In this document: piece after piece, positions 3,200-56,586 of the stretch
Position numbering within the stretch: the first letter of the stretch is position 1
Layout of the letters: every line of letters begins with the position of its first letter
Source of the DNA: Clostridia bacterium
GTDB lineage: Bacteria > Bacillota > Clostridia > Christensenellales > UBA1242
Reading direction: 5' to 3'
NCBI GenBank assembly: GCA_017541375.1
Contig: JAFXZE010000007.1
Span: forward strand, 128,989 to 192,988
Length of the DNA: 64,000 bases
Notes under the pieces: model-generated
What the model saw: only the letters and a program-made list of their open reading frames with translations
What the model was told of the DNA's origin: nothing
The model's database searches: none
Translations under genes and position numbers: made by a program

Positions 3200-3941
3200 A
3201 CTTTAGTAGTTTTTGTAAAGCATTTGCATTTAAGATTGTACTTGAAATAAACTTGCCCTTATAGAAATTTGCCCAATTATTCATAAAGCACGGTGCGTTT
3301 TTTGCCTTTTCTAAAGAGTCAATCTTAATAAAATTTAGTTTGATATTATTATTTTTCGCATAATCACTTAATTCATTTACTTCATATTCTACATAAGGGC
3401 ATTCGTTAGCATAGTATATCGTAAAATCTTTGCTGTCTATTTGCATAGAATGGGCATTTTTACTAAAATTGGGTGGAGAAGAGGTATTAAATTGCAGAGC
3501 GAGTAGCTCGTATTCACCAATTTGATCCACTATTTTAAACCCAAAATGCTCAAAAAACTTTTTTTCACCTAAAAAAGGTTTTTTCTTAGTAGTTACGACT
3601 GTGCAAATGCCATCCATTTTCTTATTTTTTGCATCATTTATGGCATATTCGAGCAATTCTCGTCCAATTCCTTTTCCCTTAAAACTTCCAGCAACCCATA
3701 AACAATAGATATACATATAGTTTTTCCCAATTACAGGTGCCCAAGCAGTTTCAATTGGTTCATATTCAATAAAGATTTTACCACGAGCATTTAGTTTTCT
3801 AAAGATATGACCATCTTTTAGTTTCGATTTAATCCACTCTTTCTTCTTATCAACACCCGCTTGATGCTTTGGGTCTCCAATAGCGCAACAAATATGCTCA
3901 CTGTCGATATTATCGTTATCTAAATTTATGTATTCATTCAT
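3198..3941 (-). CDS. GNAT family N-acetyltransferase with YoaP-like C-terminal domain
   Basis: 247 aa. HICCAIGD near the N-terminus. GNAT acetyl-CoA motif FKGKGIGRELLEYAI. Extra roughly 90-aa C-terminal domain, as in YoaP-type enzymes. Confidence 0.7.
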   Translation of the reverse strand: MNEYINLDNDNIDSEHICCAIGDPKHQAGVDKKKEWIKSKLKDGHIFRKLNARGKIFIEYEPIETAWAPVIGKNYMYIYCLWVAGSFKGKGIGRELLEYAINDAKNKKMDGICTVVTTKKKPFLGEKKFFEHFGFKIVDQIGEYELLALQFNTSSPPNFSKNAHSMQIDSKDFTIYYANECPYVEYEVNELSDYAKNNNIKLNFIKIDSLEKAKNAPCFMNNWANFYKGKFISSTILNANALQKLLK

Positions 3942-24424: not shown

Positions 24425-26797
24425 CTAGCCTCGAAGTTTAGCATCAAACTTTGCTGTGAGTTGACGAACAATATTATCAAAAGTAATGTTTACTTCATCT
24501 TGAGTCATAGTTACATCAGGCTTTCTAAAAGTTAGTTTAAATGCCACATTTTTCTTACCTTTATCGATCTCATTTCCGATATAAACATCAAATAATTCAG
24601 CATTTTCTAACCATTCTCCACCAGCACGATTAATAACATTGACTAATTCCCCTACAGCTACATTTTCATTAACCAACACTGCTAAATCCCTCATAGAAGC
24701 TGGATGTTTAGGAATCGGCTTTATTTTTTTTGATTTTTTAAGAGGTAAAACGCTCAAATTTAATTCAAAATAATAACAATCAGTATTTATATCAAAGTTT
24801 TTGAGTACTTGTGGATGAATTTTACCAATTAATCCAATCGTTTTATTAGCCCATTTTAAGCTTGCAGTCATGTTTGGATGCATAAATGATAAATTAATAG
24901 GCTCATAGTTTAGAGTTATTCCAAGATTATTGGCTACTATTTCTAGTGTTGATTTTACATCAAAAAATGTAACTTTCTGCGTAGTAATGTAACTTAGCAT
25001 ATTTTGCTCTATAAATAGATTTTTGTCATTACGTTTGTTGACAAACACTTTACCAACTTCAAACAACTGAAAATCTTTATTTTGCCTATTTAAGTTAAAT
25101 CTCACTACATCTAACACACTACCAAGCATTTCTGTGCGCATTATGCTATAGTCTTTACTTAAAGGATTGGCTATAGTGATTACATTACGCAATTCACTTT
25201 CTTTTTCTATAAGTAGTTTATCAAGCTCCGTTGGTGAGCGGAAAGTGTATGTACGAATCTGATGAGCGCCTAGTGCTAACATGCTACGAGTTGCAATATT
25301 TTCTTTGTTTTGCTCTCCATCAACTCCACCAATAGTCGCTGATACTCCTTCACATTTTTGAGGTTGAATTTTATCAAAGCCGTAAAATCTAATTATTTCC
25401 TCAATCAAATCCACATCACGCTCAATATCAGCTCTGATAGCAGGTACTTCACAATTTATTACATTATTTTTCTTTGTCGCTTTTATACCTAAACTCTTTA
25501 GAGTATTTATAGCAAATTGAGCAGGAATCTCAATACCTAGATTATCTTTTATAGAGTCTAATGACACACAAATAGTTCTTGATTTTGTCTCTACCTCTCC
25601 ACAAATTACGATTGGCTCTATTTCGCCTAGCTGAAATTCTTCAATCAAATGAAGAGCTCTATTTAATCCTCTAAGCGCAGAAACGCTTTCTACTCCACGC
25701 TCAAAACGAGCACTAGCATCAGTACGCAATCCTATTGCTCTCGCGCTTCGCCTTATACTTACTCTATCAAATATCGCACTCTCTAACACTACCGTGTGAG
25801 TATTTGGATTGATTGAAAATTCTTTTCCTCCCATAATGCCAGCCAAGCCAATTACTTGCTTGTCATTTGTAATAACCACATCATCTTTACTTAGTGTATA
25901 AGTCTTGTCATCTAGCGCTATTAATTTTTCGCCTTCTTGCGCTTGTCTTACAAATATCTTTCCACCCAATTTTTCATAATCAAAAGCATGAAGTGGCTGT
26001 CCCATTTCCCACAAAATATAATTTGTTAGGTCAATAAAATTATTTTTGGGATTTATACCTATTGATTTGAGGCGTTTTTGAATAATAGCTGGCGAAGGCG
26101 CAATATTTACGTTTTTAATTACACAACCTAAATATACTCCACAATTTGGAGTATTTACATCAATATCAAGTTTTACTGCTGTTTTCTTAGCCTCAACAAA
26201 ATCGGTCTTGGGCTCGATAAACTCTCTTCCCAGTCCTGTAGCAAGTTCTCTAGCAAGTTCTACGACACTTTGGCAATCTGGTCTATTAGGCAGTACTTTT
26301 AGGTCAAAAATTACATCATTTAAACCTAAAAAATCCGCAATATCTTGCCCAACTACAGCACTCTCATCGAGTATCATGATTCCATCCACATCAGCTGTTG
26401 GATAAATCGCCTTAGTTACTCCTAGCTCTTCGCCTCCACAAAGCATACCTTGTGAAATTTCGCCACGCATAACAGTTTCTTTTATCACCGCACCATTTGG
26501 AAGATGTGCTCCATCAAGACTTGCGGGCACATAAGCTCCCTCAAATACATTTGTTGCAGCAGTGAGAATCTGAACCTGTTTTTCTCCTATATCTATAGTA
26601 CAAATTTGAAGTCGTTCAGCATTAGGATGACGAGTTAATTTCACAATTTTGCCCACTTTTACATGGTCTAGTCCCTTACTCATCTTCTTCATTTCTTCGA
26701 CTTCGTATCCGATTTCAATAAATTTATCTGCAATATCCTTTGTACTTAGCCCTGACAAATCTACAAAATCTTTCAACCAATTTAATGTAACAATCAT
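24425..26797 (-). CDS. pheT: phenylalanine--tRNA ligase beta subunit
   Basis: 790 aa. MIVTLNWLKDF start, tRNA-binding domain, B3/4, B5 and FDX-ACB C-terminal layout. Confidence 0.95.
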   Translation of the reverse strand: MIVTLNWLKDFVDLSGLSTKDIADKFIEIGYEVEEMKKMSKGLDHVKVGKIVKLTRHPNAERLQICTIDIGEKQVQILTAATNVFEGAYVPASLDGAHLPNGAVIKETVMRGEISQGMLCGGEELGVTKAIYPTADVDGIMILDESAVVGQDIADFLGLNDVIFDLKVLPNRPDCQSVVELARELATGLGREFIEPKTDFVEAKKTAVKLDIDVNTPNCGVYLGCVIKNVNIAPSPAIIQKRLKSIGINPKNNFIDLTNYILWEMGQPLHAFDYEKLGGKIFVRQAQEGEKLIALDDKTYTLSKDDVVITNDKQVIGLAGIMGGKEFSINPNTHTVVLESAIFDRVSIRRSARAIGLRTDASARFERGVESVSALRGLNRALHLIEEFQLGEIEPIVICGEVETKSRTICVSLDSIKDNLGIEIPAQFAINTLKSLGIKATKKNNVINCEVPAIRADIERDVDLIEEIIRFYGFDKIQPQKCEGVSATIGGVDGEQNKENIATRSMLALGAHQIRTYTFRSPTELDKLLIEKESELRNVITIANPLSKDYSIMRTEMLGSVLDVVRFNLNRQNKDFQLFEVGKVFVNKRNDKNLFIEQNMLSYITTQKVTFFDVKSTLEIVANNLGITLNYEPINLSFMHPNMTASLKWANKTIGLIGKIHPQVLKNFDINTDCYYFELNLSVLPLKKSKKIKPIPKHPASMRDLAVLVNENVAVGELVNVINRAGGEWLENAELFDVYIGNEIDKGKKNVAFKLTFRKPDVTMTQDEVNITFDNIVRQLTAKFDAKLRG

Positions 26798-26809: not shown

Positions 26810-27931
26810 TTATTTTTTGTTAATTTCCTCAACTATATCGGCATAATGCTCTTTTACCACAGCAGGCAATTGTTCTATATCTAATTTTTCATTGTCACCT
26901 TTTTTAACAATCAACAAATCCTTTATGGCTTGTTTTATTTTTTTATCATTTTTAGCATCTTTTGCGTATGGAACAATATCTACTTCACCCGCTTTTATTC
27001 TTTCCACAAAATAAGTAGCTAAATTTTCTATTTTTTCTACACCAATTACTTTTACTTCGTTTGGTGAAACAAATTCTTGACTAGCATTCTCAGATTGCAT
27101 AAATCCAGAATTTTCTACTTCATATACAAAGCATGATTTATTTTTTAATACATCCTTTGATGCATCTGTGTAATATTCCTCAAAATAAGGTTTTAGACCA
27201 TTTATAGTGTTTTCTAATCCCAAACTACCATAATATTTATTATCAGAAAAATACTCTAAAATACCTAATATAGGATTGTTAGTTGCACACACATATTCCC
27301 CTTCTCCACAATTTATAGGTTTAAATTCCTTAATGTCAGCATCAGTAGAAATGATGTAATACTTTTGACTTTTAAGCAACTCTTCACGCAAAACATTATA
27401 ATACTCCATCCAATGTGCCCTAACTTCATCAGGAAGCATATCTGGAGTCATATTTATGTAACCAAATCGCAATAATCTATCTCTTATATGAGCTCGAATC
27501 ATATCTTCATATGCTCGATTATTTTCATAAAAATGAATTTTTAATGCCCCAGCTCGATTAGCTTTACGAAGATATAAACTTAAGTCGTTTATTATTACTG
27601 TTTTAATAACTTTAGTTCGTTTTGTAGATACATATTCATACTTAAAACTTGTTTTCCCAGATTCAAAACCAGAGTCTTTCAACTCATACAAGGCACTCTT
27701 TTTGTGTTTAAAGCATTCAGTAAATGCGCCTTTATATAACTCATACATCTGAGGAATATCATTTTCATCCACATCCACGATAAAATTAAAATCATTCACT
27801 TCCCCGCCAAAATAAGCTGATAATACGGGGTTTGTAGTTGCATAAACCCATCTTTGTCCATGAGTACTTACTCTAGGCTCCAACATTTTTATTGTAGTAT
27901 TCTTTGATCCATGGTAAAATTTTTTCTCCAT
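26810..27931 (-). CDS. hypothetical protein with internally duplicated domain, embedded in the pheST operon
   Basis: 373 aa. GGAGG overlaps the pheS stop region, 10 nt gap after pheS and 12 nt gap before pheT. Two homologous halves: FYHGS..IKMLEP..WVYATTNPVL..LYELKDSGF..YEYVS versus YYIIS..IKEFKP..YVCATNNPIL..VYEVENSGF..QEFVS. Confidence 0.65.
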   Translation of the reverse strand: MEKKFYHGSKNTTIKMLEPRVSTHGQRWVYATTNPVLSAYFGGEVNDFNFIVDVDENDIPQMYELYKGAFTECFKHKKSALYELKDSGFESGKTSFKYEYVSTKRTKVIKTVIINDLSLYLRKANRAGALKIHFYENNRAYEDMIRAHIRDRLLRFGYINMTPDMLPDEVRAHWMEYYNVLREELLKSQKYYIISTDADIKEFKPINCGEGEYVCATNNPILGILEYFSDNKYYGSLGLENTINGLKPYFEEYYTDASKDVLKNKSCFVYEVENSGFMQSENASQEFVSPNEVKVIGVEKIENLATYFVERIKAGEVDIVPYAKDAKNDKKIKQAIKDLLIVKKGDNEKLDIEQLPAVVKEHYADIVEEINKK

Positions 27932-27941
27932 GATTTCCTCC

Positions 27942-28970
27942 TTATCTAAATTGCTTTAATAAATTTATGTCATTTTCATATAAATCACGCATATCACTAA
28001 TGCCATATTTCATCATTGTAAGTCGCTCCAATCCAAAACCAGCTGCAAAACCTCGATAAACCTTACTATCCACATTACAGTTTTCTAGCACTTTAGGATT
28101 TACCATTCCAGCCCCCAACATCTCTACGAATCCGGTGTCTTTACACATTGAACATCCACCACATTTTCCGCCACACTTAGGGCAGCTAGCGTCCACCTCT
28201 ATACTAGGTTCTGTAAAAGGGAAGAAACTTGGACGCACCCTAATCTTGGTTTTTTCTCCCAAAATGTGTTTGAGTATTCCTTCAATAGTTCCAATACAAT
28301 CTGCCATACTCACATTTTTATCTACAACCAATATCTCTAGTTGAGAAAACATTGGAGAATGAGTCGCATCAATCTCATCAATTCGATAAACATTTCCCAT
28401 AGAAATCATTCTTATAGGTGGAGTCTGTGTTTCCATAACTCGAATTTGCATTGAAGAAGTCTGTGTGCGCAACACTGTTTCCTTATCGATATAAAAAGTG
28501 TCTTGCATCTCTCGTGCTGGATGATCTTTGGGGATATTTAGTGCCTCAAAGCAGTAGTAGTCTGATTCTATATCATATCCCGTATGAAGCGAAAAACCTT
28601 GACTTACTAAATACTCAATCAATTCTTGCTTCATCTTTTCCACTGGATGCATTCCTCCCCAAAGGGTGGGTTTTACAGGAATAGTAACATCAACCTTTTC
28701 GTTAGCCAAAGCCTCATCCATTGCAGCCTTTTCAAATTGATTAAACTTATCTTCAAATAAAGCTGTCAGCTCTTGCTTTAACTCGTTTAATCCTTGCCCC
28801 ATGCTCTTCTTTTTTTCTGGAGGCAAATCTTTTAATTCCTTCATTTTTTCTAAAACCAAACCATTTTTTCCCAAGAACTTAGCATTTGCCTGTTGTAACT
28901 CTAGCTTGTTTTGTACTTTACTGAGCTGTTCTTTGGCTTTGGTCAAAATATCTTTTATATCCTTTTCCAT
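27942..28970 (-). CDS. pheS: phenylalanine--tRNA ligase alpha subunit
   Basis: 342 aa. Class II motifs, including HPAREMQDTFY and GFAAGFGLERL. Confidence 0.96.
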   Translation of the reverse strand: MEKDIKDILTKAKEQLSKVQNKLELQQANAKFLGKNGLVLEKMKELKDLPPEKKKSMGQGLNELKQELTALFEDKFNQFEKAAMDEALANEKVDVTIPVKPTLWGGMHPVEKMKQELIEYLVSQGFSLHTGYDIESDYYCFEALNIPKDHPAREMQDTFYIDKETVLRTQTSSMQIRVMETQTPPIRMISMGNVYRIDEIDATHSPMFSQLEILVVDKNVSMADCIGTIEGILKHILGEKTKIRVRPSFFPFTEPSIEVDASCPKCGGKCGGCSMCKDTGFVEMLGAGMVNPKVLENCNVDSKVYRGFAAGFGLERLTMMKYGISDMRDLYENDINLLKQFR

Positions 28971-28989: not shown

Positions 28990-29258
28990 TATATATAGAT
29001 GTTTTGAGAAAATAAAAATCTCCTCCCTTGCAATAGGACGAAGATTCTCCGTGGTACCACCTATCTTCTTACAAAAAAATTGTAAGCTCTTATAATGAGT
29101 ATAACGAACCCCAAACGCCTTTGCCTACTGCTATTATTTTCAGCAAAAGTGCTAAAAAGTGAATTCACTAACACCTTTTCCTAGGATATCTCACCGTCAT
29201 CCCTCTCTGTAAAGAAGTATGTTAGTTACTATTCTTTCTCACCGCATCTCTATTAAGT
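28990..29258 (-). promoter_or_regulatory. T-box leader (Phe specifier UUC) with terminator/antiterminator
   Basis: On the minus strand: AGAGA and AGTA elements, AGAGAG...GGTGA distal motifs, and specifier context GAA-UUC-A (plus 29161-29166). T-box AGGTGGTACCACGG at plus 29049-29062, overlapping the 5' arm of a terminator (AAUCUUCGUCC / GGGAGGAGAUU) followed by a U-run. Upstream promoter TAGACA-17-TATACT at 29266-29294. Confidence 0.8.
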
Positions 29259-44739: not shown

Positions 44740-45792
44740 CTACAGATCTAAATCTGAAAACAGCTTATGCAATTGATTGGCTTGATTTTCATCCATATGC
44801 GCCCCCAAATGTTCAAAAGCCTTAGGCATTGCCACACGCCCTTTGCTTGTACGCGCTATCATACCCTGCTGTATCAAGAAGGGCTCATATGCCTCTTCAA
44901 TTGTGGTTGATTCTTCCCCAGTAGCAGCTGATAGGGTGTCTAATCCTACGGGGCCGCCACCAAATTTATTCACAATGGCATCGAGTAACCTTCTATCCAC
45001 ACCATCCAGCCCTAGTTCGTCTATCTCCATCATCTTGAGAGCTTTTTGTGTAATATCAACATTAACATTATTCTCACCAAAAACTTCTGCATAGTCTCTT
45101 ACACGCTTAAGTAAACGATTGGCAATACGTGGTGTACCTCGTGATGACTTTGCTATAAGTAACGCAGCATCATCATTGATAGCAATATTAAGAATCTTAG
45201 CTGAACGCAAAAGAATTTTACTCAAATCCTCTGGTTCATAAAGTTCTAACCGCCCTAATACTCCAAATCTATCACGCAAGGGCCCCGTGAGCATACCTGC
45301 TCTAGTCGTAGCACCGATAAGCGTAAAAGGTTGAATTTTTAACCTAATACTCTTGGCCGATGGACCTTTCCCTACCACAAAATCTAGAGCAAAATCTTCC
45401 ATTGCTGGATATAACACTTCCTCAACAGGTCGACTAAGTCTATGTATCTCATCTATAAATAATACATCATTTTTCCCAAGATTAGTCAGTATTGCTGCAA
45501 GATCAGCTGTGTGTTCAATAGCAGGTCCGCTAGTTACTTTTATCTGCGCCCCAAGCTCATTTGCTATAATGTGTGATAGCGTAGTTTTTCCTAATCCCGG
45601 TGGACCAAATAGCAACACATGGTCTAGCGCCTCACCCCGGGCTTTTGCTGCCTTGATATACACCTTTAGGCTATCTTTAAACTTTTGCTGACCTACATAT
45701 TCCCCCAGAGTCGAAGGACGCAAACTATTTTCTATCACTTCGTCGATTTCCGACTTTGTGCTCGCTATAAATCTATCATCTTCGTATTCCAT
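44740..45792 (-). CDS. ruvB: Holliday junction branch migration helicase RuvB
   Basis: Walker [31 protein letters not shown]. Confidence 0.97.
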
Positions 45793-45795
45793 CTA

Positions 45796-46392
45796 TTATT
45801 TCCCCAATTCCTTAAAACATTTGGCTAATAAAGTCTCAACTGTGTCTGTGGTAGTAAAAACGCGATTTAACACATTTTGTGCTTCCATGCTACTTACCCC
45901 CCAGTCTAACAGCACACTATTGACTTGAGCATACACTTGACTTTCATTAATTTCGTGAGTTTTGATATCAACTTCTTCAAGATGTGATAAAGCATCTATC
46001 TTTTCTTTTAATTCGAGCAATATCCTTTCTCTTATCTTTGTACCCACACCTTTTATGCCTTTTAATATACTAGCATTTTGCGTAGCTATAGCAAAACTAA
46101 GGTCCTGAGCACTCACACCACTAAGGATATTTATTGCCATCTTTGGCCCAACACCATTGACTAACAAAAGTTTTAGAAAAACTTCCTTTTCAAAAGTGCT
46201 TGCAAATCCAAATAAGCTCAGTTCATCTTCACGAACATGTAAATATGTAGGCATCATCACTTCATGCCCTACTTCTCCTAGAGTATTGTAGCAAAATGAT
46301 GACACACAGACATCGTACCCTATCCCATTATTTTCGATAACTACATCTCCAAAACCTTTATAAGCAACCGTACCTTTTATAAAACTTATCAT
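45796..46392 (-). CDS. ruvA: Holliday junction DNA-binding protein RuvA
   Basis: 198 aa. MISFIKGTV start. HhH motifs LLLVNGVGPKMA and LKGIKGVGTKIRERI. Confidence 0.92.
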   Translation of the reverse strand: MISFIKGTVAYKGFGDVVIENNGIGYDVCVSSFCYNTLGEVGHEVMMPTYLHVREDELSLFGFASTFEKEVFLKLLLVNGVGPKMAINILSGVSAQDLSFAIATQNASILKGIKGVGTKIRERILLELKEKIDALSHLEEVDIKTHEINESQVYAQVNSVLLDWGVSSMEAQNVLNRVFTTTDTVETLLAKCFKELGK

Positions 46393-46892
46393 AATATCTT
46401 TCTCTCCATTTGACTAATCATTAATTTACTGGTTTGGCTATGACACAGAGCCACCGCCACAGCATCCGCAGCATCATCGGGGCGAGGAATCTTCGTTAGA
46501 TTGAGTAGAGTTTTTACCATAAACTGAACCTGACTCTTATCTGCTTTTCCTATGCCCGTAAGAGCAATTTTTATCTGCTGCGGTGTATATTCATAAACGG
46601 GCAAATCTTTATTTATTACGCTAAGCAATATCACTCCCCTAGCCTCAGCTACTGGAATACCTGTCGTAATATTTTTATTGAAATATAGTTTTTCAATTGC
46701 TACCTCATTAGGGCTATATTTATCGATGAGTTTTTGCATACTCTCATAAATCGCCTTAAGTCGCATATTAAATTCCATTTCCTTAGGGGTTGTAATTACT
46801 CCATAATCAACTACACTATTACCTTTGGTTTCCTTATCAATGAAGCTAAAACCAATTATCCCGTATCCTGGGTCAATTCCCATTATCCGCAT
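46389..46892 (-). CDS. ruvC: crossover junction endodeoxyribonuclease RuvC
   Basis: 167 aa. MRIMGIDPGYG start, catalytic acidic residues, DAADAVAVALCH. Confidence 0.92.
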   Translation of the reverse strand: MRIMGIDPGYGIIGFSFIDKETKGNSVVDYGVITTPKEMEFNMRLKAIYESMQKLIDKYSPNEVAIEKLYFNKNITTGIPVAEARGVILLSVINKDLPVYEYTPQQIKIALTGIGKADKSQVQFMVKTLLNLTKIPRPDDAADAVAVALCHSQTSKLMISQMERKIL

Positions 46893-47040: not shown

Positions 47041-47050
47041 GTTACTCCTA

Positions 47051-47081
47051 ACAAAAAAGCTATCCCCTAACTTGGGATAGC
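47051..47081 (-). terminator. rho-independent terminator after the 51-aa ORF
   Basis: Minus strand: gctatccc-aagttag-gggatagc followed by tttttt. Confidence 0.7.
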
Positions 47082-47100
47082 GTTGGATAAACAAAACATG

Positions 47101-47256
47101 TTACTTTGCTTTTTTAGCTCCACGAGAGCGTTTGATAGATGATTCAGAACCACACTCAACACTCTTTTCTCTCTTGCAGCTTGGACAATTTTTTGATGAT
47201 CCACCAGCACAAGAACACAACTTTGTTTTTGTCTTTGAAGATGACCTTGCAGCCAT
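47101..47256 (-). CDS. 51-aa Lys/Ser/Cys-rich small protein (unknown function)
   Basis: ATG at 47256 lies 7 nt after GGAGGTGGAG. Sequence: MAARSSSKTKTKLCSCAGGSSKNCPSCKREKSVECGSESSIKRSRGAKKAK. Composition: 5 Cys, 10 Lys, 4 Arg, 12 Ser. Terminator immediately downstream. Confidence 0.5.
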   Translation of the reverse strand: MAARSSSKTKTKLCSCAGGSSKNCPSCKREKSVECGSESSIKRSRGAKKAK

Positions 47257-47352
47257 ATCTCCACCTCCGTTTATTTGCAAACCGGCTTGCATCATTATTG
47301 TGTGTAGTTTAATCTATTTCATACTACTATCGGAGTTGGAAAAATATGTAAA

Positions 47353-48993
47353 TTAACAAGAGAGTTCTCTATCAACTTGTGCTTCTTGTACAGCAGCCTT
47401 TTCCTGAGCTTCTCTATCAAATCCCCCACTAGCTTCCTTTTCATTTAGTTGTTCATTAGTTAATTGAAAATTATCCATACTTACCATATCAGCTTTTAAG
47501 CATGGCCCTTCACCAGAGCCACCAGTTTCATCGACACCAGTATGACAAGCGTTTTTAGGCCCACCTATGCCGATTAGCATAGCGATAATATTAGACCCAT
47601 CTAGAGTTGTAATATCAGCTCTCTGGAATAAATCAGGATTAATACTCCGATCACACAACATTTCATATTCTTGCCAAGCTCTATTATTTGAGCTTTTATC
47701 TCCCAGATATCCTTTCTGCTCTTTTGTAAGAGCTTTGTCAATTTCATCATAAGTTACTTTTGACATATCAATATCATTGTCTGCGTATAATAGTTTCATT
47801 CGCCTAGAGCCGTCTTTACCTTTAAAATATAAGATATATGCCCTAAACCCAAGCCCTTTTGTGCCTATCTCTGGATGCTCAGCAAAATACAACTCACCCT
47901 CTTCAGTGATAGCTGTATTCTTTATCATGTCTATTTTTTTAGAATAAAGAACTTTAGATATTTTTTTAAATGACGATCTAATTACCTCTTGAGGAAATGT
48001 TACAGCCTTACCCATGCTATCGAGTATCCTTTCATTACGAGGTATTCCATGAGGATTCGTACCATTTGAGTAGGGTTCGTAAAAATCCTCATCCATTCCA
48101 AAGTGACGCAACACATCTTTCATTGTGTAATTCATATTTCCCATTGCGGTCATAGCCCATGTTAAATCCACTGGAATAGTCCTAAAATTGCCACTAGCAT
48201 CTTTTAAAATAAGATTTACCCACGCATGCTCCCCAACTTTTTCTACATATTCGCAATCTACACCCATACGTTGCAAAAGTGTAGTATATGCATCCGATAT
48301 TCCAGCACAAACTCCATTAGGGCCATATTGATGATTAAGCACACAAACTAGCGAGCGTAAGAAATCACGCCCATTGTTATCTATCATATGATCATCATGG
48401 TCTTTATTTTTGTATTCATACTGTAACATATCACCAAGCTTTAAAAAACCATATAACGCCTTGTCAACATCACTCCATTCTTTCTGTGTATTCACATAAT
48501 CGGCAATTTTATCTAAACGACTGTATATAAAGGACAAATCTCTAGCTGAATGAAGCGTTAATTCTTTGTAATAACTATTATTAAATTTGTCTTGATTTAA
48601 ATAATCATAACTTGTTGTATCAGAAAACAGCACATCTTTATCTGTGATTTTAAAAAGCTGCTCAGGAGCAATTCTATCTCTTTCCCCTTTAGTACCGTCC
48701 AGTTTTCTCCCAGCACTATTATATACTATCACGCATTTTCCGGCTTTGTTTGTTTTTTTAATATCTTCAATTGTTTTATTTATCTTTTCGATATCTTCGT
48801 CAGTTAATTCACCTTCAAGATAAAAGTAATTTTCATATGAGTAGTCAAAGTTTGAGTTTTTACCATTTTGATTAGGAAGCTTGTATTTAATGTTGAGCAT
48901 TCTCTCTAATTTTTTATCTACCAAACTTTTATCCATGTCTGGGATATTTTTATAAAGTTCACTTTCTTTAAATTTATTTACTTCAAAAATCAT
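47353..48993 (-). CDS. transglutaminase-fold (Cys-His-Asp) protein, 546 aa
   Basis: NGVCAGISDAYTTLLQRMGVDCEYV (Cys), GEHAWVNLIL (His) and IPVDLTW (Asp), in transglutaminase-core order. Flanking N- and C-terminal regions are unrecognised. No signal peptide. Start overlaps the upstream stop (ATGA). Confidence 0.65.
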   Translation of the reverse strand: MIFEVNKFKESELYKNIPDMDKSLVDKKLERMLNIKYKLPNQNGKNSNFDYSYENYFYLEGELTDEDIEKINKTIEDIKKTNKAGKCVIVYNSAGRKLDGTKGERDRIAPEQLFKITDKDVLFSDTTSYDYLNQDKFNNSYYKELTLHSARDLSFIYSRLDKIADYVNTQKEWSDVDKALYGFLKLGDMLQYEYKNKDHDDHMIDNNGRDFLRSLVCVLNHQYGPNGVCAGISDAYTTLLQRMGVDCEYVEKVGEHAWVNLILKDASGNFRTIPVDLTWAMTAMGNMNYTMKDVLRHFGMDEDFYEPYSNGTNPHGIPRNERILDSMGKAVTFPQEVIRSSFKKISKVLYSKKIDMIKNTAITEEGELYFAEHPEIGTKGLGFRAYILYFKGKDGSRRMKLLYADNDIDMSKVTYDEIDKALTKEQKGYLGDKSSNNRAWQEYEMLCDRSINPDLFQRADITTLDGSNIIAMLIGIGGPKNACHTGVDETGGSGEGPCLKADMVSMDNFQLTNEQLNEKEASGGFDREAQEKAAVQEAQVDRELSC

Positions 48994-49601
48994 CTATTCC
49001 CCTCCACAATAAAGGCAGTAAACTGTCCATCATCTTCCAACACTTCGACAGTCACCCCGCTTGCCTTTAAAAAAGCTTCATTTTCTTTGTATTGAGCCAA
49101 AGATACTACAATTTTTTTCACCATAATGTTTTTCACAAATTCAAAATTATCTACTTTACATGCCCAAACATGCACATACTCTGCTTTTGGCCTAAAATCT
49201 TCATCAAGTTCCATGTTTCTGAGTATCATCCTATCCGCTGTCAAAAAATTTACCATGTCTTCAGTATGCTCACACCCATTCATATTTAACTCTTGTAGAT
49301 GTACTCTATCAAAAACAAAAGGATCCACAATAGTAAAATCGCACCTGATAAAACTAATTGTTTTGAGAGTTTGACGCAAAATTGTAGCAATAATTTGCGT
49401 ACTAAGTACACAATCTTTCACCGTCAAACCAGTTAACTCCGTAAATTTATTCAAATCCAAAAAATCCACATCAAGTATTTGCCCATTTATATCATAGTGG
49501 TCAATTGATAGATATTTTACTTGTTTAAGCTCCTCTGGAGTATAATTATCTTTTTTCCCAAATTGAAAAAATAGACTTTCTTTTATGCTTGTTGTTTTCA
49601 T
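48990..49601 (-). CDS. hypothetical protein with leucine-rich-repeat-like periodicity, 203 aa
   Basis: Repeated L..L.L..C/N pattern (LTGLTVKDCVL, LKTISFIRCDF, LQELNMNGCEH, LRNMELDEDF). RBS GAGGAGAG. Translationally coupled to the downstream gene. Confidence 0.5.
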   Translation of the reverse strand: MKTTSIKESLFFQFGKKDNYTPEELKQVKYLSIDHYDINGQILDVDFLDLNKFTELTGLTVKDCVLSTQIIATILRQTLKTISFIRCDFTIVDPFVFDRVHLQELNMNGCEHTEDMVNFLTADRMILRNMELDEDFRPKAEYVHVWACKVDNFEFVKNIMVKKIVVSLAQYKENEAFLKASGVTVEVLEDDGQFTAFIVEGNR

Positions 49602-49624
49602 ATTCTCTCCTCAAATTTTTGATA

Positions 49625-49653
49625 ATTATACTCTAAACACAAAAAAAAATCAA
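49625..49653 (-). promoter_or_regulatory. sigma-A type promoter for the LRR-like/transglutaminase operon
   Basis: Minus strand TTGATT, 17 nt, TATAAT. Confidence 0.45.
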
Positions 49654-49671
49654 CTTTTTCTATACAGAATA

Positions 49672-50949
49672 TCAACTTAATGACTCTATTAGTTTTTCAA
49701 TTAGTTGAACATTTTTATCACACTCTTTTTTATTGTCCCCCTCAACCAACACCCTGATACACTCCTCAGTCCCCGAAGGACGCACAAGTATTCTCCCTCG
49801 GAAATGAGTTTTGATTTGTCTTATAAGGTTTTTTAGTGATTTTGACGATACTATTTTTAGTTTATCTTCCACATTTATGCTTTTACTAAGGGCATAGTTC
49901 AATTTAAAATCTGCCAGATCATTCAAATCTGAATCGGTATACTTAATAATATTTGCAATGCACAACGCTGTATATATCCCATCACCTGTTGCTAAATAAT
50001 TTGACAAAATAATATGTCCTGAAGATTCACCGCCTAATTGTATGTTGTTTTTTTTCATCAAAGCTGCTACATTACTATCGCCTACATTAGCACGCAAAAG
50101 CCTAATTCCCTTTTTATTTAATTCACTACTAATAGCTCCATTTGTCATCTTAGTACCCACCACTGCTTTAGAGCTAATTCCCACTAAATCTTGATTAGTA
50201 GCTAATATATAAAGCAATATATCCCCATCAAATACTTCTCCAGTATTACCTACGGCTATCACCCTATCTCCATCCCCATCAAAAGCAAAACCTATTGTAG
50301 CATTATTCTCTTTTACAGCCCTTTTTAAGGATGATAAATGTAACGAGCCACATTTAAGATTGATATTTTCCCCATCAGGAGCAGCGTTAATCAAAACAAC
50401 ATTCGCATTGTTTTTTTCAAATATTTTCTGAGCTAATTTACTGGTTGCACCATTTGCACAATCTAACACAATCTTTATTCCACTAAGATTGAATCTACCA
50501 TTTAAATACTCTTCATAGTGAAGCACCAAACTAGGATTATACTCCAGCTTCCCACCAGCTAAATAAGACAATTTTTTCCTTGCTATTTGCAAACTTATTT
50601 TATTTTCTAAGGTGCATATTATTTTCTCTCCATTACTATCAAAAATCTTTATTCCATTATATTGCACTTGATTATGCGATGCGGTAATCATCGCCCCAAA
50701 ATCGCACTTTAGCTTTTTTGTGAGATATGCCACACATGCACTTGGACAAATGCCTACATCAATAACTTTTCCACCAGCCATCATCACTCCCTCTGCTAGG
50801 CTGTTTTTTATTACCCTACTATGGTATCTTGTATCCATTCCAATTAGCATTGTTTTACTCACAAAAAAGTTGCCACATCGAAAAGCTATATCCAGCGTCA
50901 ATTTATCACCAAACACTCCGCGAATTCCGTCAGTTCCAAAGTAATTCAT
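49672..50949 (-). CDS. glmM: phosphoglucosamine mutase
   Basis: Start MNYFGTDGIRG (50949), ATGA-coupled to the upstream gene. Phosphoserine loop TASHNQVQYNGIK (canonical SHNP reads SHNQ here). Metal loop FDGDGDR. Confidence 0.9.
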   Translation of the reverse strand: MNYFGTDGIRGVFGDKLTLDIAFRCGNFFVSKTMLIGMDTRYHSRVIKNSLAEGVMMAGGKVIDVGICPSACVAYLTKKLKCDFGAMITASHNQVQYNGIKIFDSNGEKIICTLENKISLQIARKKLSYLAGGKLEYNPSLVLHYEEYLNGRFNLSGIKIVLDCANGATSKLAQKIFEKNNANVVLINAAPDGENINLKCGSLHLSSLKRAVKENNATIGFAFDGDGDRVIAVGNTGEVFDGDILLYILATNQDLVGISSKAVVGTKMTNGAISSELNKKGIRLLRANVGDSNVAALMKKNNIQLGGESSGHIILSNYLATGDGIYTALCIANIIKYTDSDLNDLADFKLNYALSKSINVEDKLKIVSSKSLKNLIRQIKTHFRGRILVRPSGTEECIRVLVEGDNKKECDKNVQLIEKLIESLS

Positions 50950-51545
50950 GCCCCCTCCCAATATTTTTTTGCTCTATTAGCTTTTGTTATAGGGCGCACG
51001 CGTCCTATAATAAAGTCATTTTCTTGTGAATCGCTAGTCACCGTTGTTCCTGCACAAATATATGTGTAGTCTGCAAGTCTGATAGGAGCAATAATATTAC
51101 AATTACTCCCAATAAAACAGCTATCCCCTACAACAGTATGATTTTTTTTCATACCATCGTAATTTACAAATATAGCGCCACAACCAATATTACAATTTTC
51201 CCCAACGCTTGCATCTCCCACATAGGCTAAGTGGCTTATTTTAGTGTTTTTTCCTATTACGCTATTTTTTATTTCTACAAAATTACCTATTCTACACCCA
51301 CTTTCGATACTACAATCAGGTCGAATATGGGCAAAAGGTCCAATCGAAACACAATTAGATATATGAGAATTTTCTACTACACTGCAAAAAATCGTGCAGT
51401 TTGCCCCAATCTCACTATCTATTATTATACTAAAAGGATAAATAATAGCATTTGCACCAACTTTGCAACGCCCTATAAATGTAACATTATCAAAAATAAT
51501 AGCACTGTCGTCAACTTCGACAGTGCTCTTTAGTTTAGTCTTCAT
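50946..51545 (-). CDS. stand-alone left-handed beta-helix acetyltransferase matching the GlmU C-terminal domain
   Basis: 199 aa. GPFAHIRP...IGNFVEIKNS...SHLAYVGDASVGENCNIGCGAIFVNYDG..K..T.VGD..FIGSN tracks the GlmU acetyltransferase domain. Confidence 0.8.
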   Translation of the reverse strand: MKTKLKSTVEVDDSAIIFDNVTFIGRCKVGANAIIYPFSIIIDSEIGANCTIFCSVVENSHISNCVSIGPFAHIRPDCSIESGCRIGNFVEIKNSVIGKNTKISHLAYVGDASVGENCNIGCGAIFVNYDGMKKNHTVVGDSCFIGSNCNIIAPIRLADYTYICAGTTVTSDSQENDFIIGRVRPITKANRAKKYWEGA

Positions 51546-52408
51546 ATATCTCCATTATTAACTAAGTCTTTTAAAAACTCTTTAAATTGTGTCCCAATCT
51601 TTGGGTCATTAAGTCCAGCTAAAACATTAGCCTTTACAAAGCCAAGCGGATTGCCAATATCAAGTCTAATACCAGTAATATACACTCCATACATGCCATG
51701 ATTGGCTGCTAAATAATCAAAAAACTTTGTAAGTATTACCTCTTCATTTGCTGGCACAGAATCTACATCCACACAATCAAACACATCAGATGTAAATAAT
51801 CCCCCTCCAGTATAACAGACATCACTTGGGCTTTCCTCAGGTCTGGGCTTTTCTACAATTTTTTCTATTTTATTACCTAACTCGTCTTTTTTATAGGAAA
51901 CCATACCATATTTGTAACTCTCTTCTATTGGTATCTGCTTCATTGGAATAATGCTGCAACCGGTTTTTTTATAACCCTCAATTAAAGCACCTGCATAGCT
52001 TTGATTTAGCACTAATTCGTCAGGAAAAATAAGAATAAACGGTTCTTTTCCTACAAAATTACGTGCTTCTAGTAGCGCAAATCCCGTTCCTCTAGCGTAT
52101 TTTTGGCGCATAAAATACACATTTACGCCCTCAAACATCGAATTTATCACAGAGCAAAATTCTGGTTTTTCGCTTACTCTTTGTTCTGTTTCGACATTTC
52201 TATCATAATACTTCTCTAGGCTTTCCTTATCACGTCCTAATATGATAAGGATTTCCGTTACGCCATTCTCCTTTAGGTCTTGTATACAATAATCTATCGC
52301 CGGTCTATTTAATATCGGCATCATTTCCTTTGGTACAGTTTTGGTGATAGGCAACATGCGTGTTGCCAATCCCCCACACAAAATAACAGCTTTTTTCACT
52401 TTTTTCAT
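51542..52408 (-). CDS. sugar-1-phosphate uridylyltransferase, GalU/GtaB-like
   Basis: MKKVKKAVILCGGLATRMLPITKTVPKEMMPI matches the GalU/GtaB N-terminus. 288 aa. ATGA-coupled to the acetyltransferase gene. Confidence 0.8.
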   Translation of the reverse strand: MKKVKKAVILCGGLATRMLPITKTVPKEMMPILNRPAIDYCIQDLKENGVTEILIILGRDKESLEKYYDRNVETEQRVSEKPEFCSVINSMFEGVNVYFMRQKYARGTGFALLEARNFVGKEPFILIFPDELVLNQSYAGALIEGYKKTGCSIIPMKQIPIEESYKYGMVSYKKDELGNKIEKIVEKPRPEESPSDVCYTGGGLFTSDVFDCVDVDSVPANEEVILTKFFDYLAANHGMYGVYITGIRLDIGNPLGFVKANVLAGLNDPKIGTQFKEFLKDLVNNGDI

Positions 52409-52709: not shown

Positions 52710-55496
52710 TTAGTCTGATGTTTGGCTTGTTAGTTTTTGGTACATTTTGAAGAGTTCTGCCACGATTTCACTCTCGGTTATGCCCCTCTTCCAGCCATAC
52801 GCCTCTATTACTGCCCTATCGTTTTCGTTATGTGCCTTACGCAAATCATCAGGCATAGTGACTGGGTCATACAGCACCGCCAAACTACAATCTGGATGTT
52901 TTTTCCTCGCATCCAGTATGCCTTGGGCTGTACGTTTGATTTTTTCTTCTTGTTCTTTTGTAGGTGTCGGCCATGGAAAGTTGTTGTAAACAAAAGGAGA
53001 ATAATTATAATCGCTTTTAAGTCGTCCAGCAACAACTCTCATCCAAGAATTATGTATATTAGATGAGAGAATCCCAAACATATATAAGTCTGCATTAGAA
53101 ATAAAATTAACTCGATCACTCAAAATTACATCTGGTTTCATGAAGCCTATTGGTATGTATTTTCTATTTTTAGACGAAACTCTTGGTATTGCCAAATATG
53201 CAGTGTTTGGTTGTCGAATTTGAGTAAACAACATTGGTCTTTCAGAATCTTTTCGAACAGACAATGTTGGACTACTCAATCTAAAATCTCTAACATTATT
53301 AAGTCTTTCTACAATTGGTTTTATGTTCCGATACTTTTGGGGGGAAATATCGCACAACCACAAACAATATCTCACTTTATTATTAATAAATTCCTCTGCT
53401 CCAATATATCTTTTAATCAACTCATTAGTTTCAGGATATTTTTTTATTAAATTATCCTTTTCTTCTTTACTTAATATCAAAAAACCCCCATCAGTTGCTT
53501 GACTACCTTTTGAAATTGGCTGCAAAGTCGAAAATAGTTGTTTTGAACGATTTTGTATGAAAATATTAGGTGCATCCATTAAATAACCATTTATATTTTT
53601 TACTTGCTTAAAAGTTCCATTTTCATATAAAAGTTTGTTTGCATTTAAATTGAAACAACAAAAACCTATAATTACACAATGGACAGCAGCCTTATCCTTT
53701 GCTTCACTAGACCATATAAAAGACTTATGAGCAAATAATATTTCAGCATTTTTTTTGTTAAATAGATAATGCCATAAAATTGGAACAGATTCCCCCTGAC
53801 AAATAGAGTTTGTTGAAACAAACGCTGTTTTAATGTTGGTATTCTCCATTAATTCTACAGCTTTAACATACCAAGCACAAACATAATCTAATTTCCCATG
53901 TATTTTTAAATCTTTAAAAGCAAATTCCATATCTCTTACTTGTTCAGCATTTCTCCATTGATGCCCTACAAACGGTGGATTGCCCATAATGTAGTTTAAT
54001 TTTTCTTTAGGAATCACATCATTCCAGTCTATACGCAAAGCATTACCCTCCACAATATGCGCAGTGGTCTGAATGGGTAAAAAGTCAGGCACATTGGGGA
54101 TAATTCTTTGGGTTTCTTTTAGCATTTGCGACTCTGATATCCACAGTGCAGTTTCGGCTACCCTACAGGCAAAATCATTTATCTCGATGCCATAGAAATG
54201 GTCTATTTTTACACAAATCATTTCGTCCATTAGGGTCTGCTGAGCCTTGCCTATAGCATATTGAGACCTGAGTGCATCATTCTCTAATTCACGCAATGAG
54301 AGGTATGTTTCTGTAAGGAAATTACCCGAGCCACAAGCAGGGTCCAAAAATTTTAACTTACCCAACTTGTAGCGATACTCTGCCAACTTTTTGTCCCTTT
54401 GATTTTTGTTTTTGATAAATTTAATTTTCTCAAGTTCCGTCCTGAGGTCATTTAAAAATAGCGGGTCTATTACTTTGTGAATATTCTCGAGTGAAGTGTA
54501 GTGCATTCCGCCCTTTCGTCTAGTTTCGGGGTTGAGAGTGCTCTCAAACACCGCCCCAAAAATAGTAGGGCTAATTTCACTCCAATTGAAACTTTCACTT
54601 GCCTCTTCTAAAATTAACTTTTTAATCTCTTCATTGAACGTAGGCATCAAAACATCTGTATTTCTAAATAATCCGCCATTTACATAAGGGAAACTCAACA
54701 GTTCTTTTGAAAATTTGCTATCACGTAATTCTTGTGGAATATTCAAAATCTTAAACAAACGCTTGAGAGCCACATCCATCTTTTCGGCAGGATATTTCAT
54801 CAAGTAATCATGAAAAGCCCCCTTAGGGCGGAATAAATCACTATCTTCAGCATAAAAGCAAAACACCAAACGCACACAAAGTTCATTAATGTTTTTGTCT
54901 ATTGTTTTTTCATCCAAATTGGCAAATTGCTTTTGCATTTGTGATCTAAGTGCATTATAAAGTTTGCCCACGATTTCACCGGCTTTCATCGAAAGTTCGG
55001 TTTCTTTCTTTATATAATCATATTTTTCGTCGACAATAAACTTTAGGACATTGTAGTGCTTGGGTAATTCGTACAACTTTACAGATACAGGCGCAGGATT
55101 TACAGATTTTCCTATATCATATATACGAAATTCTTTAAAGTTACACACAATAATCCACCTTACTTTATCAAAATAAGGAAGATTGGCTGCATACCTCTGC
55201 GCTTGCTCAAAAGGCGTCAACAATTCGCCATCAGATTGGCGCTCTGGTTTATCTAAGTTGACACTACTATTCTTTTGCTCAATCAAAACGTGAGTTTTCT
55301 TTATAAAACCGTCTATAAATTTGGTTTGCCCATTTACTTCGACTTGTTTTTCAAAATTGATAAACTCACTTGGGTGGCGTATGGAAAAAATTTCTCCCAA
55401 CAATTCAGTCCAAAAACTATCTTTTTCGCCTTTTTCATATCCTTTACCACTCCAACGACGAACAAAATCTTCTATAGTATACTTATCTACGTTCAT
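52710..55496 (-). CDS. MmeI-like type IIL (IIG) restriction-modification enzyme: nuclease, N6-adenine methyltransferase and TRD in one polypeptide
   Basis: ATG at 55496 follows AGGAGA. N-terminal D...E-x-K (FIDGFIKKTHVLIEQK). SAM motif FLDPACGSGNFL. Catalytic NPPF (IMGNPPFVG). Long C-terminal target-recognition region. About 928 aa. Confidence 0.82.
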   Translation of the reverse strand: MNVDKYTIEDFVRRWSGKGYEKGEKDSFWTELLGEIFSIRHPSEFINFEKQVEVNGQTKFIDGFIKKTHVLIEQKNSSVNLDKPERQSDGELLTPFEQAQRYAANLPYFDKVRWIIVCNFKEFRIYDIGKSVNPAPVSVKLYELPKHYNVLKFIVDEKYDYIKKETELSMKAGEIVGKLYNALRSQMQKQFANLDEKTIDKNINELCVRLVFCFYAEDSDLFRPKGAFHDYLMKYPAEKMDVALKRLFKILNIPQELRDSKFSKELLSFPYVNGGLFRNTDVLMPTFNEEIKKLILEEASESFNWSEISPTIFGAVFESTLNPETRRKGGMHYTSLENIHKVIDPLFLNDLRTELEKIKFIKNKNQRDKKLAEYRYKLGKLKFLDPACGSGNFLTETYLSLRELENDALRSQYAIGKAQQTLMDEMICVKIDHFYGIEINDFACRVAETALWISESQMLKETQRIIPNVPDFLPIQTTAHIVEGNALRIDWNDVIPKEKLNYIMGNPPFVGHQWRNAEQVRDMEFAFKDLKIHGKLDYVCAWYVKAVELMENTNIKTAFVSTNSICQGESVPILWHYLFNKKNAEILFAHKSFIWSSEAKDKAAVHCVIIGFCCFNLNANKLLYENGTFKQVKNINGYLMDAPNIFIQNRSKQLFSTLQPISKGSQATDGGFLILSKEEKDNLIKKYPETNELIKRYIGAEEFINNKVRYCLWLCDISPQKYRNIKPIVERLNNVRDFRLSSPTLSVRKDSERPMLFTQIRQPNTAYLAIPRVSSKNRKYIPIGFMKPDVILSDRVNFISNADLYMFGILSSNIHNSWMRVVAGRLKSDYNYSPFVYNNFPWPTPTKEQEEKIKRTAQGILDARKKHPDCSLAVLYDPVTMPDDLRKAHNENDRAVIEAYGWKRGITESEIVAELFKMYQKLTSQTSD

Positions 55497-55512
55497 ATTT
55501 TCTCCTATTGTT

Positions 55513-56586
55513 TTATAGCGGAATATTAGCAAGGGCAGAAATGGATAGGTCGGCTGGATCGGAACTTAGTAGTTGATAATAGGCAATTGAGCCAATCATC
55601 GCAGCATTGTCCGTACAAAACTCCTTGGGTGGGTAAAATAGCTCGATACCTGCCTTTTTACTAAGTTTATCAAGACTAGCTCTTAGATAAGAGTTGGCCG
55701 CCACGCCTCCAGCAAGCACCAATTTTTTCTCACCAAAATCCTCGCAAGCGCGTAGCACTTTACTTACTAGCATATCCACAGCTTCAGCCTGAAACGATGC
55801 ACAAATCTGCGGAACATCGAGTTTTTCTTTGTTCTGCTCTAATTTATGTACATAGTTTATCACAGCAGTTTTTAGCCCACTATAACTGATGTCATAACTT
55901 CCGCTCATGATATCGTGCTGAATAAACTTTATCTTAGGCTCTACTCCTGTAGCCAGCTTGTCAATTTTGGCTCCGCCAGGATATTCTAATCCTAAAACTC
56001 GAGCCACCTTATCAAAAGCCTCACCTATAGCATCATCTTGTGTCGTACCGATTAGTTTAAAGTGTACATAATCATCTACTTTGATGATAGCAGTATGCCC
56101 ACCACTAGTAAGCAAACACATAAACGGTGGCACCAAAGTAGGAAAAGCTATGTAGTTTGCTGCAATATGACCCTGAATATGATTTACATTGATAAGAGGC
56201 AAATCCAGGGCAAAACTAAGAGCCTTAGCCGTAGTTAGCCCAACCAATAATGCCCCAACTAACCCAGCTCCTTGAGTTACGCCTATTGCATCAATGTCAT
56301 TTAGTGTACACTTAGCACTAGACAGGGCTTGATCCACAAGTGGAATTATATTGAGAATGTGATTTCGGCTTGCCACTTCAGGCACAACCCCACCAAAATG
56401 ACGATGTATGTCAATTTGACTAGAAATAATGTTACTGAGTACTTTTCTCCCATTTTCTACAATCGCCACACTCGTTTCATCACAACTACTTTCTATTGCT
56501 AAAATTTTCACCTTTTTTTGTTTGCGCAAAGCCACACATTTTTGCTTCATCCTCTCAATGTAATCCATAGTTTTCCTCTTATTCAA
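55513..56586 (-). CDS. tsaD: tRNA N6-adenosine threonylcarbamoyltransferase TsaD
   Basis: ILAIESSCDETS, GGHT (LTSGGHTAI), GVAANS. The exact start is uncertain, as several Met codons are available. Confidence 0.93.
   Translation of the reverse strand: MNKRKTMDYIERMKQKCVALRKQKKVKILAIESSCDETSVAIVENGRKVLSNIISSQIDIHRHFGGVVPEVASRNHILNIIPLVDQALSSAKCTLNDIDAIGVTQGAGLVGALLVGLTTAKALSFALDLPLINVNHIQGHIAANYIAFPTLVPPFMCLLTSGGHTAIIKVDDYVHFKLIGTTQDDAIGEAFDKVARVLGLEYPGGAKIDKLATGVEPKIKFIQHDIMSGSYDISYSGLKTAVINYVHKLEQNKEKLDVPQICASFQAEAVDMLVSKVLRACEDFGEKKLVLAGGVAANSYLRASLDKLSKKAGIELFYPPKEFCTDNAAMIGSIAYYQLLSSDPADLSISALANIPL

Follow-up and report, generated by a model that had tools for sequence, protein, structure and literature searches.

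The minus strand of a 64,000-nucleotide (64-kb) stretch of contig JAFXZE010000007.1 from a Clostridia bacterium, referred to here as the window, carries three open reading frames (ORFs) between glmM and the ruv genes. The question raised by this locus is whether the three ORFs act together as one operon or are expressed and used separately. The order on this strand is glmM (50961..49672), ORF-A (49601..48990), ORF-B (48993..47353), ORF-C (47256..47101), an intrinsic terminator and then ruvC-ruvA-ruvB (46892..44740). ORF-A encodes 203 amino acids and was assigned to the leucine-rich-repeat (LRR) proteins by AlphaFold and Foldseek, ORF-B encodes a 546-residue protein with a transglutaminase-like core, and ORF-C encodes 51 amino acids rich in Lys, Ser and Cys and without aromatic residues. 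The spacer between glmM and ORF-A is 70 nucleotides (nt) long, the start codon of ORF-B overlaps the stop codon of ORF-A (ATGA at 48993-48990) and a further 96 nt separate ORF-B from ORF-C. An earlier note on this DNA, the original prediction, had described the 203-residue ORF, the 546-residue ORF coupled to it through ATGA, the 96-nt gap, the 51-residue ORF and the terminator; all were present on the minus strand at the coordinates it gave, and both of the flanks that it named, glmM and ruvCAB, were found in the window.

The original prediction also took all three genes to be one simple operon. This is probably not the case, as ORF-C has a conserved forespore-type promoter of its own and ORF-A and ORF-B have one of the sigma-A type. 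The explanation towards which the evidence leans, if not by much, is that of two nested expression units, an A-B bicistron and a separately promoted ORF-C encoding a spore protein. A sigma-A-type promoter would drive the bicistron. Its products would most likely form a complex. The LRR subunit A would pick out a protein target or present it, and B would cleave, deamidate or transamidate this target through an acyl-enzyme at Cys229. ORF-C would most likely be an abundant spore protein, either metal-binding or resembling the minor small acid-soluble spore proteins (SASPs). Vegetative read-through from the A-B promoter probably also reaches ORF-C, because a terminator scan of the gap between ORF-B and ORF-C detected none.

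Other contigs and loci compared with the window are labelled L001 to L020. Six of these (L008-L013) are further contigs of the same organism and were 100% identical to the window across the region, and L002 differed from it by two substitutions and a run of N bases, nothing else.

Expression signals of ORF-C

ORF-C follows ORF-B in all six loci of one subclade, namely the window, L001, L003, L004, L015 and L016. Both L015 and L016 came from JGI metagenomes, where a DNA pattern based on conserved sequence at the start of ORF-C picked them out; the same pattern gave no match in GTDB representative genomes. A predicted forespore-type (sigma-F/sigma-G-like) promoter, GTATG-N17-CACAATA, lies on the minus strand of the window at 47296..47324. 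The same boxes at the same spacing, G[AT]AT[GT]-N17-CA[CAT]A[AC]TA, were observed in 6/6 loci, with 38-40 nt between their end and the start codon. When the window is compared with L003, a pair in which GlmM is 45% and B 28% identical, the stretch of about 100 nt ahead of ORF-C looks well conserved by eye, and few non-coding sequences of these genomes are conserved as well as the ORF-C promoter and 5' leader. A sigma-A reading of the promoter (ATGAAA-17-AATAAT, 9/12) was rejected, since the other loci keep the forespore-type boxes and not this sequence.

The organism has a sporulation sigma cascade, as the window encodes a spoIIGA-sigE-sigG cluster at 372-2749 on the plus strand. Helmann and Moran (2002) are said to give the Bacillus subtilis sigma-G consensus as GHATR-17/18-CATXHTA. 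The sigG gene of the window is itself preceded by GAATA-N18-CACACTA at about 1914-1950, overlapping the end of sigE, and this resembles the ORF-C promoter. It was the only promoter that could serve for calibration, a tblastn search with SASP queries having found no SASP gene in the window or in the compared loci. A similar likeness was seen to the mapped sigma-G promoter of Clostridioides difficile sspA, TGAATT...CACAATAAT, with boxes GAATT and CACAATAAT (Table S6, PMC3789822).

Further conserved elements surround the promoter. Directly after the ORF-B stop codon and upstream of the putative -35 box there is an 18-nt block, ATTT[AC]CAT[AT]TTTT[ATG]CCA (47336..47353, minus strand), which was present with few substitutions in 6/6 aligned ORF-C loci and may serve as an upstream element of the promoter or as the site of a regulator. 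A short inverted repeat, TGCAAGCCGGTTTGCA (47276..47291, minus strand), would fall at the predicted 5' end of the transcript or close to it and is nearly invariant in the six loci. TGCAAGCCGGTTTGCA formed a hairpin in the minimum-free-energy folds of four of them, L001, L003, L015 and L016; those of the window and L004 did not show it. Such a stem-loop may stabilise the ORF-C transcript. The strong ribosome binding site that had been claimed for the 51-residue ORF was confirmed as a very strong Shine-Dalgarno sequence, GGAGGTGGAG (47259..47268, minus strand), invariant in the six loci. Both expression units would end at an intrinsic terminator at 47050..47081 on the minus strand, in which a stem at 47081-47059 (GCTATCCC-loop-GGGATAGC) is followed by a T-run; the sequence of the stem is conserved in the five loci that reach that far. 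Given that it has its own predicted promoter, a possible stem-loop, a strong ribosome binding site and a terminator, ORF-C is probably a separately regulated spore protein, and we propose with moderate confidence that this promoter drives its transcription in the forespore.

ORF-C as a coding sequence

DNA as unusually well conserved as this might instead specify a non-coding RNA or an antisense ORF, so that ORF-C would not be a gene. The antisense -1 frame is indeed open in six loci, and one gene caller chose the antisense ORF in L003. We consider this explanation highly improbable. The antisense ORF was rejected because its open frame follows from the composition of ORF-C, which lacks Tyr and almost lacks His and Gln, and a known RNA was rejected because no Rfam family matched the region at either gathering or permissive thresholds. 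It is the sense strand that carries a conserved Shine-Dalgarno sequence, start codon, stop codon and terminator. The sense frame is open in 6/6 loci, with an ATG or GTG at a fixed position and a stop codon just before the terminator, and nucleotide changes in the block encoding SSSK are synonymous when read in sense but would alter an antisense product. Insertions and deletions between the window and L001 are multiples of three, although the frame is not kept throughout when the variable middle is aligned across all six loci. The open frame, the conserved start and stop positions and the synonymous changes indicate, at the level of sequence, that ORF-C is coding.

The protein encoded in the window has a pI of 10.1, contains 20% Lys and 10% Cys, is rich in Ser and lacks aromatic residues. 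Its orthologues are 47-63 amino acids long and of the same kind (pI ∼10, ∼20% Lys, ∼23% Ser, ∼10% Cys, aromatic-free). Their most conserved part is the N-terminus, xKSSSK[ST]K, and this is followed by a variable, Cys-rich middle; the Cys content is conserved, the Cys positions only partly and loosely. The protein is probably disordered. It had been called Lys-rich and Gln-free, which holds for the copy in the window; freedom from Gln is not a conserved property, however, because the L001 orthologue has two Gln.

Searches of Pfam and NCBIfam with ORF-C and its orthologues gave no match save one sub-threshold plant metallothionein match, that of a single orthologue to PF02068 (E=0.006, 17.4 bits, under the 31.8-bit cut-off). 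Like the bacterial metallothioneins SmtA and BmtA and the plant PEC proteins, ORF-C is small, Gly/Ser/Lys-rich and aromatic-free, with ∼10% Cys in C-x-C and C-x-x-C arrangements. It shares with the minor SASPs, the products of sigma-G-dependent ssp genes, its tiny size, a monocistronic-looking unit, a predicted forespore-type promoter, a strong ribosome binding site and a terminator. Unlike the SASPs it is basic and Cys-rich, and no similarity was found to SASPs of either the alpha/beta-type or the minor kind.

The A-B pair as a conserved cassette

The promoter claimed in the original prediction for the first two genes, TTGATT-17-TATAAT, is present on the minus strand at 49653-49625 (49625..49653) within the spacer after glmM. 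A promoter scan of the window was not by itself above chance (8 sites against 12.9 expected). The same -35/17/-10 arrangement is conserved in three distant relatives, L003, L004 and L015, in which TTGTGT-17-TATAAT stands directly after the glmM stop codon.

Profile hidden Markov models found adjacent, overlapping A and B genes in the window, L003, L004, L015, L016, L005, L017 and L019. The overlap is 4-8 nt, or 1 nt in L019. Two further cases, GCA_016648615.1 and L020, were recognised by gene layout alone. An overlap was seen in every lineage whose sequence ahead of B was readable, the window and eight more. Co-occurrence in related genomes, which had been proposed as a check, was thus strong for A and B, with the overlap of start and stop codons kept across lineages. 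The neighbours of the pair vary. They are glmM in the clade of the window, RmuC and trpS-like genes in L005, a penicillin-binding protein and an SDF transporter in L017, gltX and cysS in L019, and ftsA and ftsZ in L020. In L017 a 502-residue Sel1-repeat protein is encoded directly after the pair (L017 6375-7883). All of the sources are gut or ruminant metagenomes, and the only named records are hypothetical proteins of 'Bacilli bacterium' metagenome-assembled genomes. Searches with the B alignment gave no match in GTDB representative genomes and none in JGI metagenomes. The A-B pair recurs as a conserved cassette in uncultured gut Firmicutes, at places in the chromosome that are unrelated to one another.

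Translational coupling that persists across lineages is a signature of two subunits made in a fixed ratio. On these grounds we infer that A and B form a complex, with the LRR protein as its recognition subunit. The original prediction knew of no described system of this composition and none was found here; the folds are familiar and their combination is new.

An LRR sensor joined to a protease effector is a common immune design, and the pair might therefore be an anti-phage defence or toxin module with the LRR protein as sensor and a cysteine protease as effector. Some neighbourhoods would suit this. In L005 TraG/VirD4-like and RmuC genes precede the pair (L005 666-5349), in L017 a transposase is nearby, and the window has a type IIG-like restriction-modification gene at a distance of about 3 kb. 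It is nevertheless very unlikely. No PADLOC defence model matched A, B, C or three relatives, and no relatives were found in viral contigs. Most of the loci sit among housekeeping genes (glmM, ftsA/ftsZ, gltX/cysS) and keep their place over deep divergence, which argues for vertical inheritance and not for a defence island.

ORF-B

The original prediction recognised a transglutaminase-like core in ORF-B from the motifs GVCAGIS, HAWV and VDLTW. All three are present, and the family alignment identifies within them the nearly invariant residues Cys229 (codon 48309-48307), His256 (48228-48226) and Asp276 (48168-48166), all on the minus strand. In an alignment of 45 sequences of the B family, Cys229 and His256 were each conserved in 44, and Asp276 in 40 with Glu in the other five. 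A word-indexed search with ORF-B returned only two homologues; an exhaustive HMMER search returned 77 cluster representatives, mostly of ∼450 amino acids and ∼30% identical. Among the 45 aligned relatives, 21 matched Pfam PF01841 (Transglut_core), with E values down to 2.9e-9.

When the B-family profile was compared with solved structures a single match was obtained, 9crn_A (E=3e-14), with the motifs VCxG[FY]A, HAWN and VDxTW aligned. The AlphaFold model of ORF-B had a predicted local distance difference test (pLDDT) score of 78 overall and above 90 in the core. Its best Foldseek match was again 9CRN (Streptococcus pyogenes TglA, E=1.2e-5); a transglutaminase (4xz7), TgpA (6g4h among the matches), factor XIIIa, TG2 and PNGase were also found. 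Sequence and model together indicate that ORF-B is an enzyme of transglutaminase fold, located in the cytoplasm, that retains all three residues of the Cys-His-Asp triad. Given these family and structure matches and the retention of the triad residues across the alignment, it very probably belongs to the transglutaminase-like superfamily as an active enzyme. The original prediction saw no signal peptide in any of the three proteins, and neither A nor B has a signal peptide or membrane helix, because no 19-residue window exceeds a mean Kyte-Doolittle hydropathy of about 1.2.

TglA, described in PDB as a 'transglutaminase-like domain-containing protein', is thus the closest known relative by both profile and fold, although only ∼130-250 residues align at ∼15% identity with a TM-score of 0.23-0.33. 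No paper on 9CRN or TglA was found in the library consulted, and we know of no LRR partner for TglA. More widely, ORF-B shares with the bacterial and archaeal transglutaminase-like cysteine proteases of PF01841 the Cys-His-Asp residues in canonical order and their motifs. It differs from them in an N-terminal alpha/beta module, a C-terminal beta-rich domain and an obligatory upstream LRR gene, which are specific to the B family. Three distant members of this family, P0012, P0008 and P0083, gave partial matches, far under the cut-off, to NCBIfam NF045980, the 'MAG6410 family transglutaminase-related lipoprotein' of mycoplasmas. Weak matches to Pfam IreB were seen in three of the 45 aligned members.

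The spore coat enzyme Tgl of B. subtilis, with which ORF-B had been compared, is likewise a cysteine-based protein-modifying enzyme in a spore former. Tgl has ∼245 amino acids, is made late in the mother cell under sigma-K and cross-links Gln to Lys in coat proteins. ORF-B, in contrast, has 546 amino acids, and the only promoter recognisable upstream of A-B is of the sigma-A type. The analogy to Tgl fails at the family level also. Tgl belongs to PF20085, which gave no match for ORF-B at E<=1 nor for the 45 relatives at E<=0.01. PF20085 has been grouped with NlpC/P60-type enzymes (PMC10318531).

ORF-A

The LRR-like character attributed to ORF-A was borne out by its AlphaFold model, a solenoid of alternating strand and helix units with a pLDDT of 92.3, and by its Foldseek matches. 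These included repebodies, Listeria LRR proteins and internalins, Skp2, and TLR4 and other TLRs. Almost all of the top 50 were LRR proteins, with probabilities up to 1.00 but E values of only 1e-3 or weaker. Pfam and NCBIfam gave no match to ORF-A of the window, and Pfam LRR models matched weakly in 6 of 18 relatives. A profile search collected 19 proteins, nearly all of 200-208 amino acids and all of them unnamed or 'hypothetical'. ORF-A is a cytoplasmic LRR protein and the founding member of a family of ∼205 amino acids without a Pfam model. Homology of ORF-A to the N-terminal module of ORF-B was considered and rejected, a profile-profile comparison having found no similarity.

An analogy can be drawn with the IpaH/SspH LRR-NEL ligases and the F-box LRR protein Skp2, where an LRR solenoid for targets is combined with a catalytic Cys module, and the Skp2 LRR is one of those onto which the model of ORF-A can be superposed. 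In the present locus each part is a polypeptide of its own, the catalytic module has a transglutaminase-like fold and no ubiquitin system is present.

Is ORF-C the substrate of the A-B pair?

The original prediction suggested an enzyme and its substrate. In its fullest form, B guided by A would cross-link the Lys-rich ORF-C protein to Gln residues of spore proteins, or would cleave it, for example at germination in the way that GPR degrades SASPs. Lys is the acyl acceptor in transglutaminase chemistry, and the ORF-C protein has 20% Lys and is probably disordered. ORF-C lies directly downstream of B in 6/6 of the loci that contain it, even though GlmM is only 45% identical in the one pair compared and the downstream genes differ, and the gap between B and C shows no detectable terminator. 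Against this, all six loci fall in a single glmM-linked subclade and may have the genes side by side for no other reason than descent, and the A-B cassettes of L005, L017, L019 and L020 have no ORF-C. The claim that the three genes occur together therefore held within that subclade and failed outside it. The promoters also differ in type, sigma-A-like for A-B and forespore-like for C, and B is not homologous to Tgl. Given the single subclade, the cassettes lacking ORF-C and the differing promoters, the enzyme and substrate trio is a live rival, though an unlikely one, and not the best explanation.

ORF-C is not part of the core cassette. It cannot be the general substrate of the cassette either, because the A-B pairs examined outside the subclade are without it. 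It may be a clade-specific client of A-B, since it has stayed beside B across deep divergence. In a bolder proposal, A-B would be a two-subunit protein-modifying machine of a kind not known before, whose dedicated client in the glmM-linked clade would be a new class of Cys-rich, strongly basic mini-protein, made in the forespore and either cross-linked via its lysines or destroyed at germination. We regard this as quite improbable.

The pattern of conservation in ORF-C, a conserved N-terminus before a variable Cys-rich middle, also recalls a ribosomally synthesised and post-translationally modified peptide (RiPP). ORF-C would then be a precursor with an N-terminal leader, B the leader peptidase and A a recognition element. 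The B enzymes of lasso-peptide clusters are Cys-His-Asp leader peptidases of transglutaminase fold (cited in PMC10318531), and as with McjB, such an enzyme here adjoins a small peptide gene. The locus differs from lasso-peptide clusters in having no Asn-synthetase-like cyclase, RiPP recognition element domain or exporter, in giving no match to Pfam Transglut_core3, and in its peptide gene with a sporulation-type promoter. More generally, no adjacent cyclase, radical-SAM enzyme, dehydratase or exporter was present in any locus, NCBIfam SCIFF-type models also gave no match, the promoter of ORF-C is of the forespore type and the other A-B cassettes examined lack a peptide gene. A RiPP-like cluster is thus extremely unlikely.

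Several results weigh against the preferred explanation, that of an A-B bicistron nested with a separately promoted spore protein gene. The exact forespore-type pattern matched three times in the window where 2.3 matches would be expected by chance. As the pattern itself is not rare, the case for this promoter is made by the conservation of its boxes and geometry across loci. Its spacing convention is ∼2 nt off that of the C. difficile examples, and the six ORF-C loci may share their arrangement simply by descent. ORF-B of the window scored 15.2 bits against PF01841, under the 23-bit cut-off, and by its sequence it may be a protease, a deamidase or a transglutaminase. Finally, L001 has no A gene, and its B homologue, P0002, begins with ∼52 amino acids from the N-terminus of ribosomal protein S13.

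In L001 the B gene follows infA-rpmJ and the in-frame join falls at 'DLTDDDI' (at about 1950-1990), a motif common to S13 and the B family. The parts of L001 concerned are 1812-1990 and 3607-3638, and L014 is the same contig. Its coverage is 2.3x, and Illumina adapter sequence stands at its end. The simplest and likely explanation is a chimeric assembly, a real rearrangement being less probable. The window protein has an S13-like 'LTDEDIEKIN', and an origin of the B N-terminus from S13 was considered. This was rejected because G-[ED]-[LI]-T-x-[ED]-D-[IV]-x-K-I-N is native to the whole B family.

Other features of the window

Upstream of glmM a GlmU-like function is seemingly split between overlapping ORFs at 50946-52408 on the minus strand, a nucleotidyltransferase of 288 amino acids and a hexapeptide-repeat protein of 199; the same arrangement was seen in L003 and L008. 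Between this glmU/glmM cluster and a tsaD-like gene lies an ORF of 940 amino acids (52710-55532, minus strand), which judged by eye has the look of a fused type IIG restriction-modification protein. Elsewhere, an ORF of 373 amino acids (26810-27931, minus strand) stands between pheS (27942-28970) and pheT (24425-26797), genes that are normally adjacent. A T-box leader at 29031-29251 (137 bits) precedes this pheS/pheT operon.

Implications

If A and B work as a pair, they would represent a conserved bacterial case of a free-standing LRR subunit coupled to a cytoplasmic transglutaminase-fold enzyme. To our knowledge, most other known enzymes guided by LRRs are eukaryotic or belong to secreted effectors. 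The small-protein field of spore biology is dominated by the SASPs of Bacillus and Clostridium, and ORF-C would add to it a new kind of spore mini-protein, basic, Cys-rich and aromatic-free. Were the forespore-made mini-protein in fact the client of A-B, the locus would define a new route of spore maturation or germination that has no relation to Tgl or GPR. Both families are limited to uncultured ruminant and gut lineages and their members are 'hypothetical' or nameless in the sources consulted, and a function assigned to them would be a new annotation for the whole clade.

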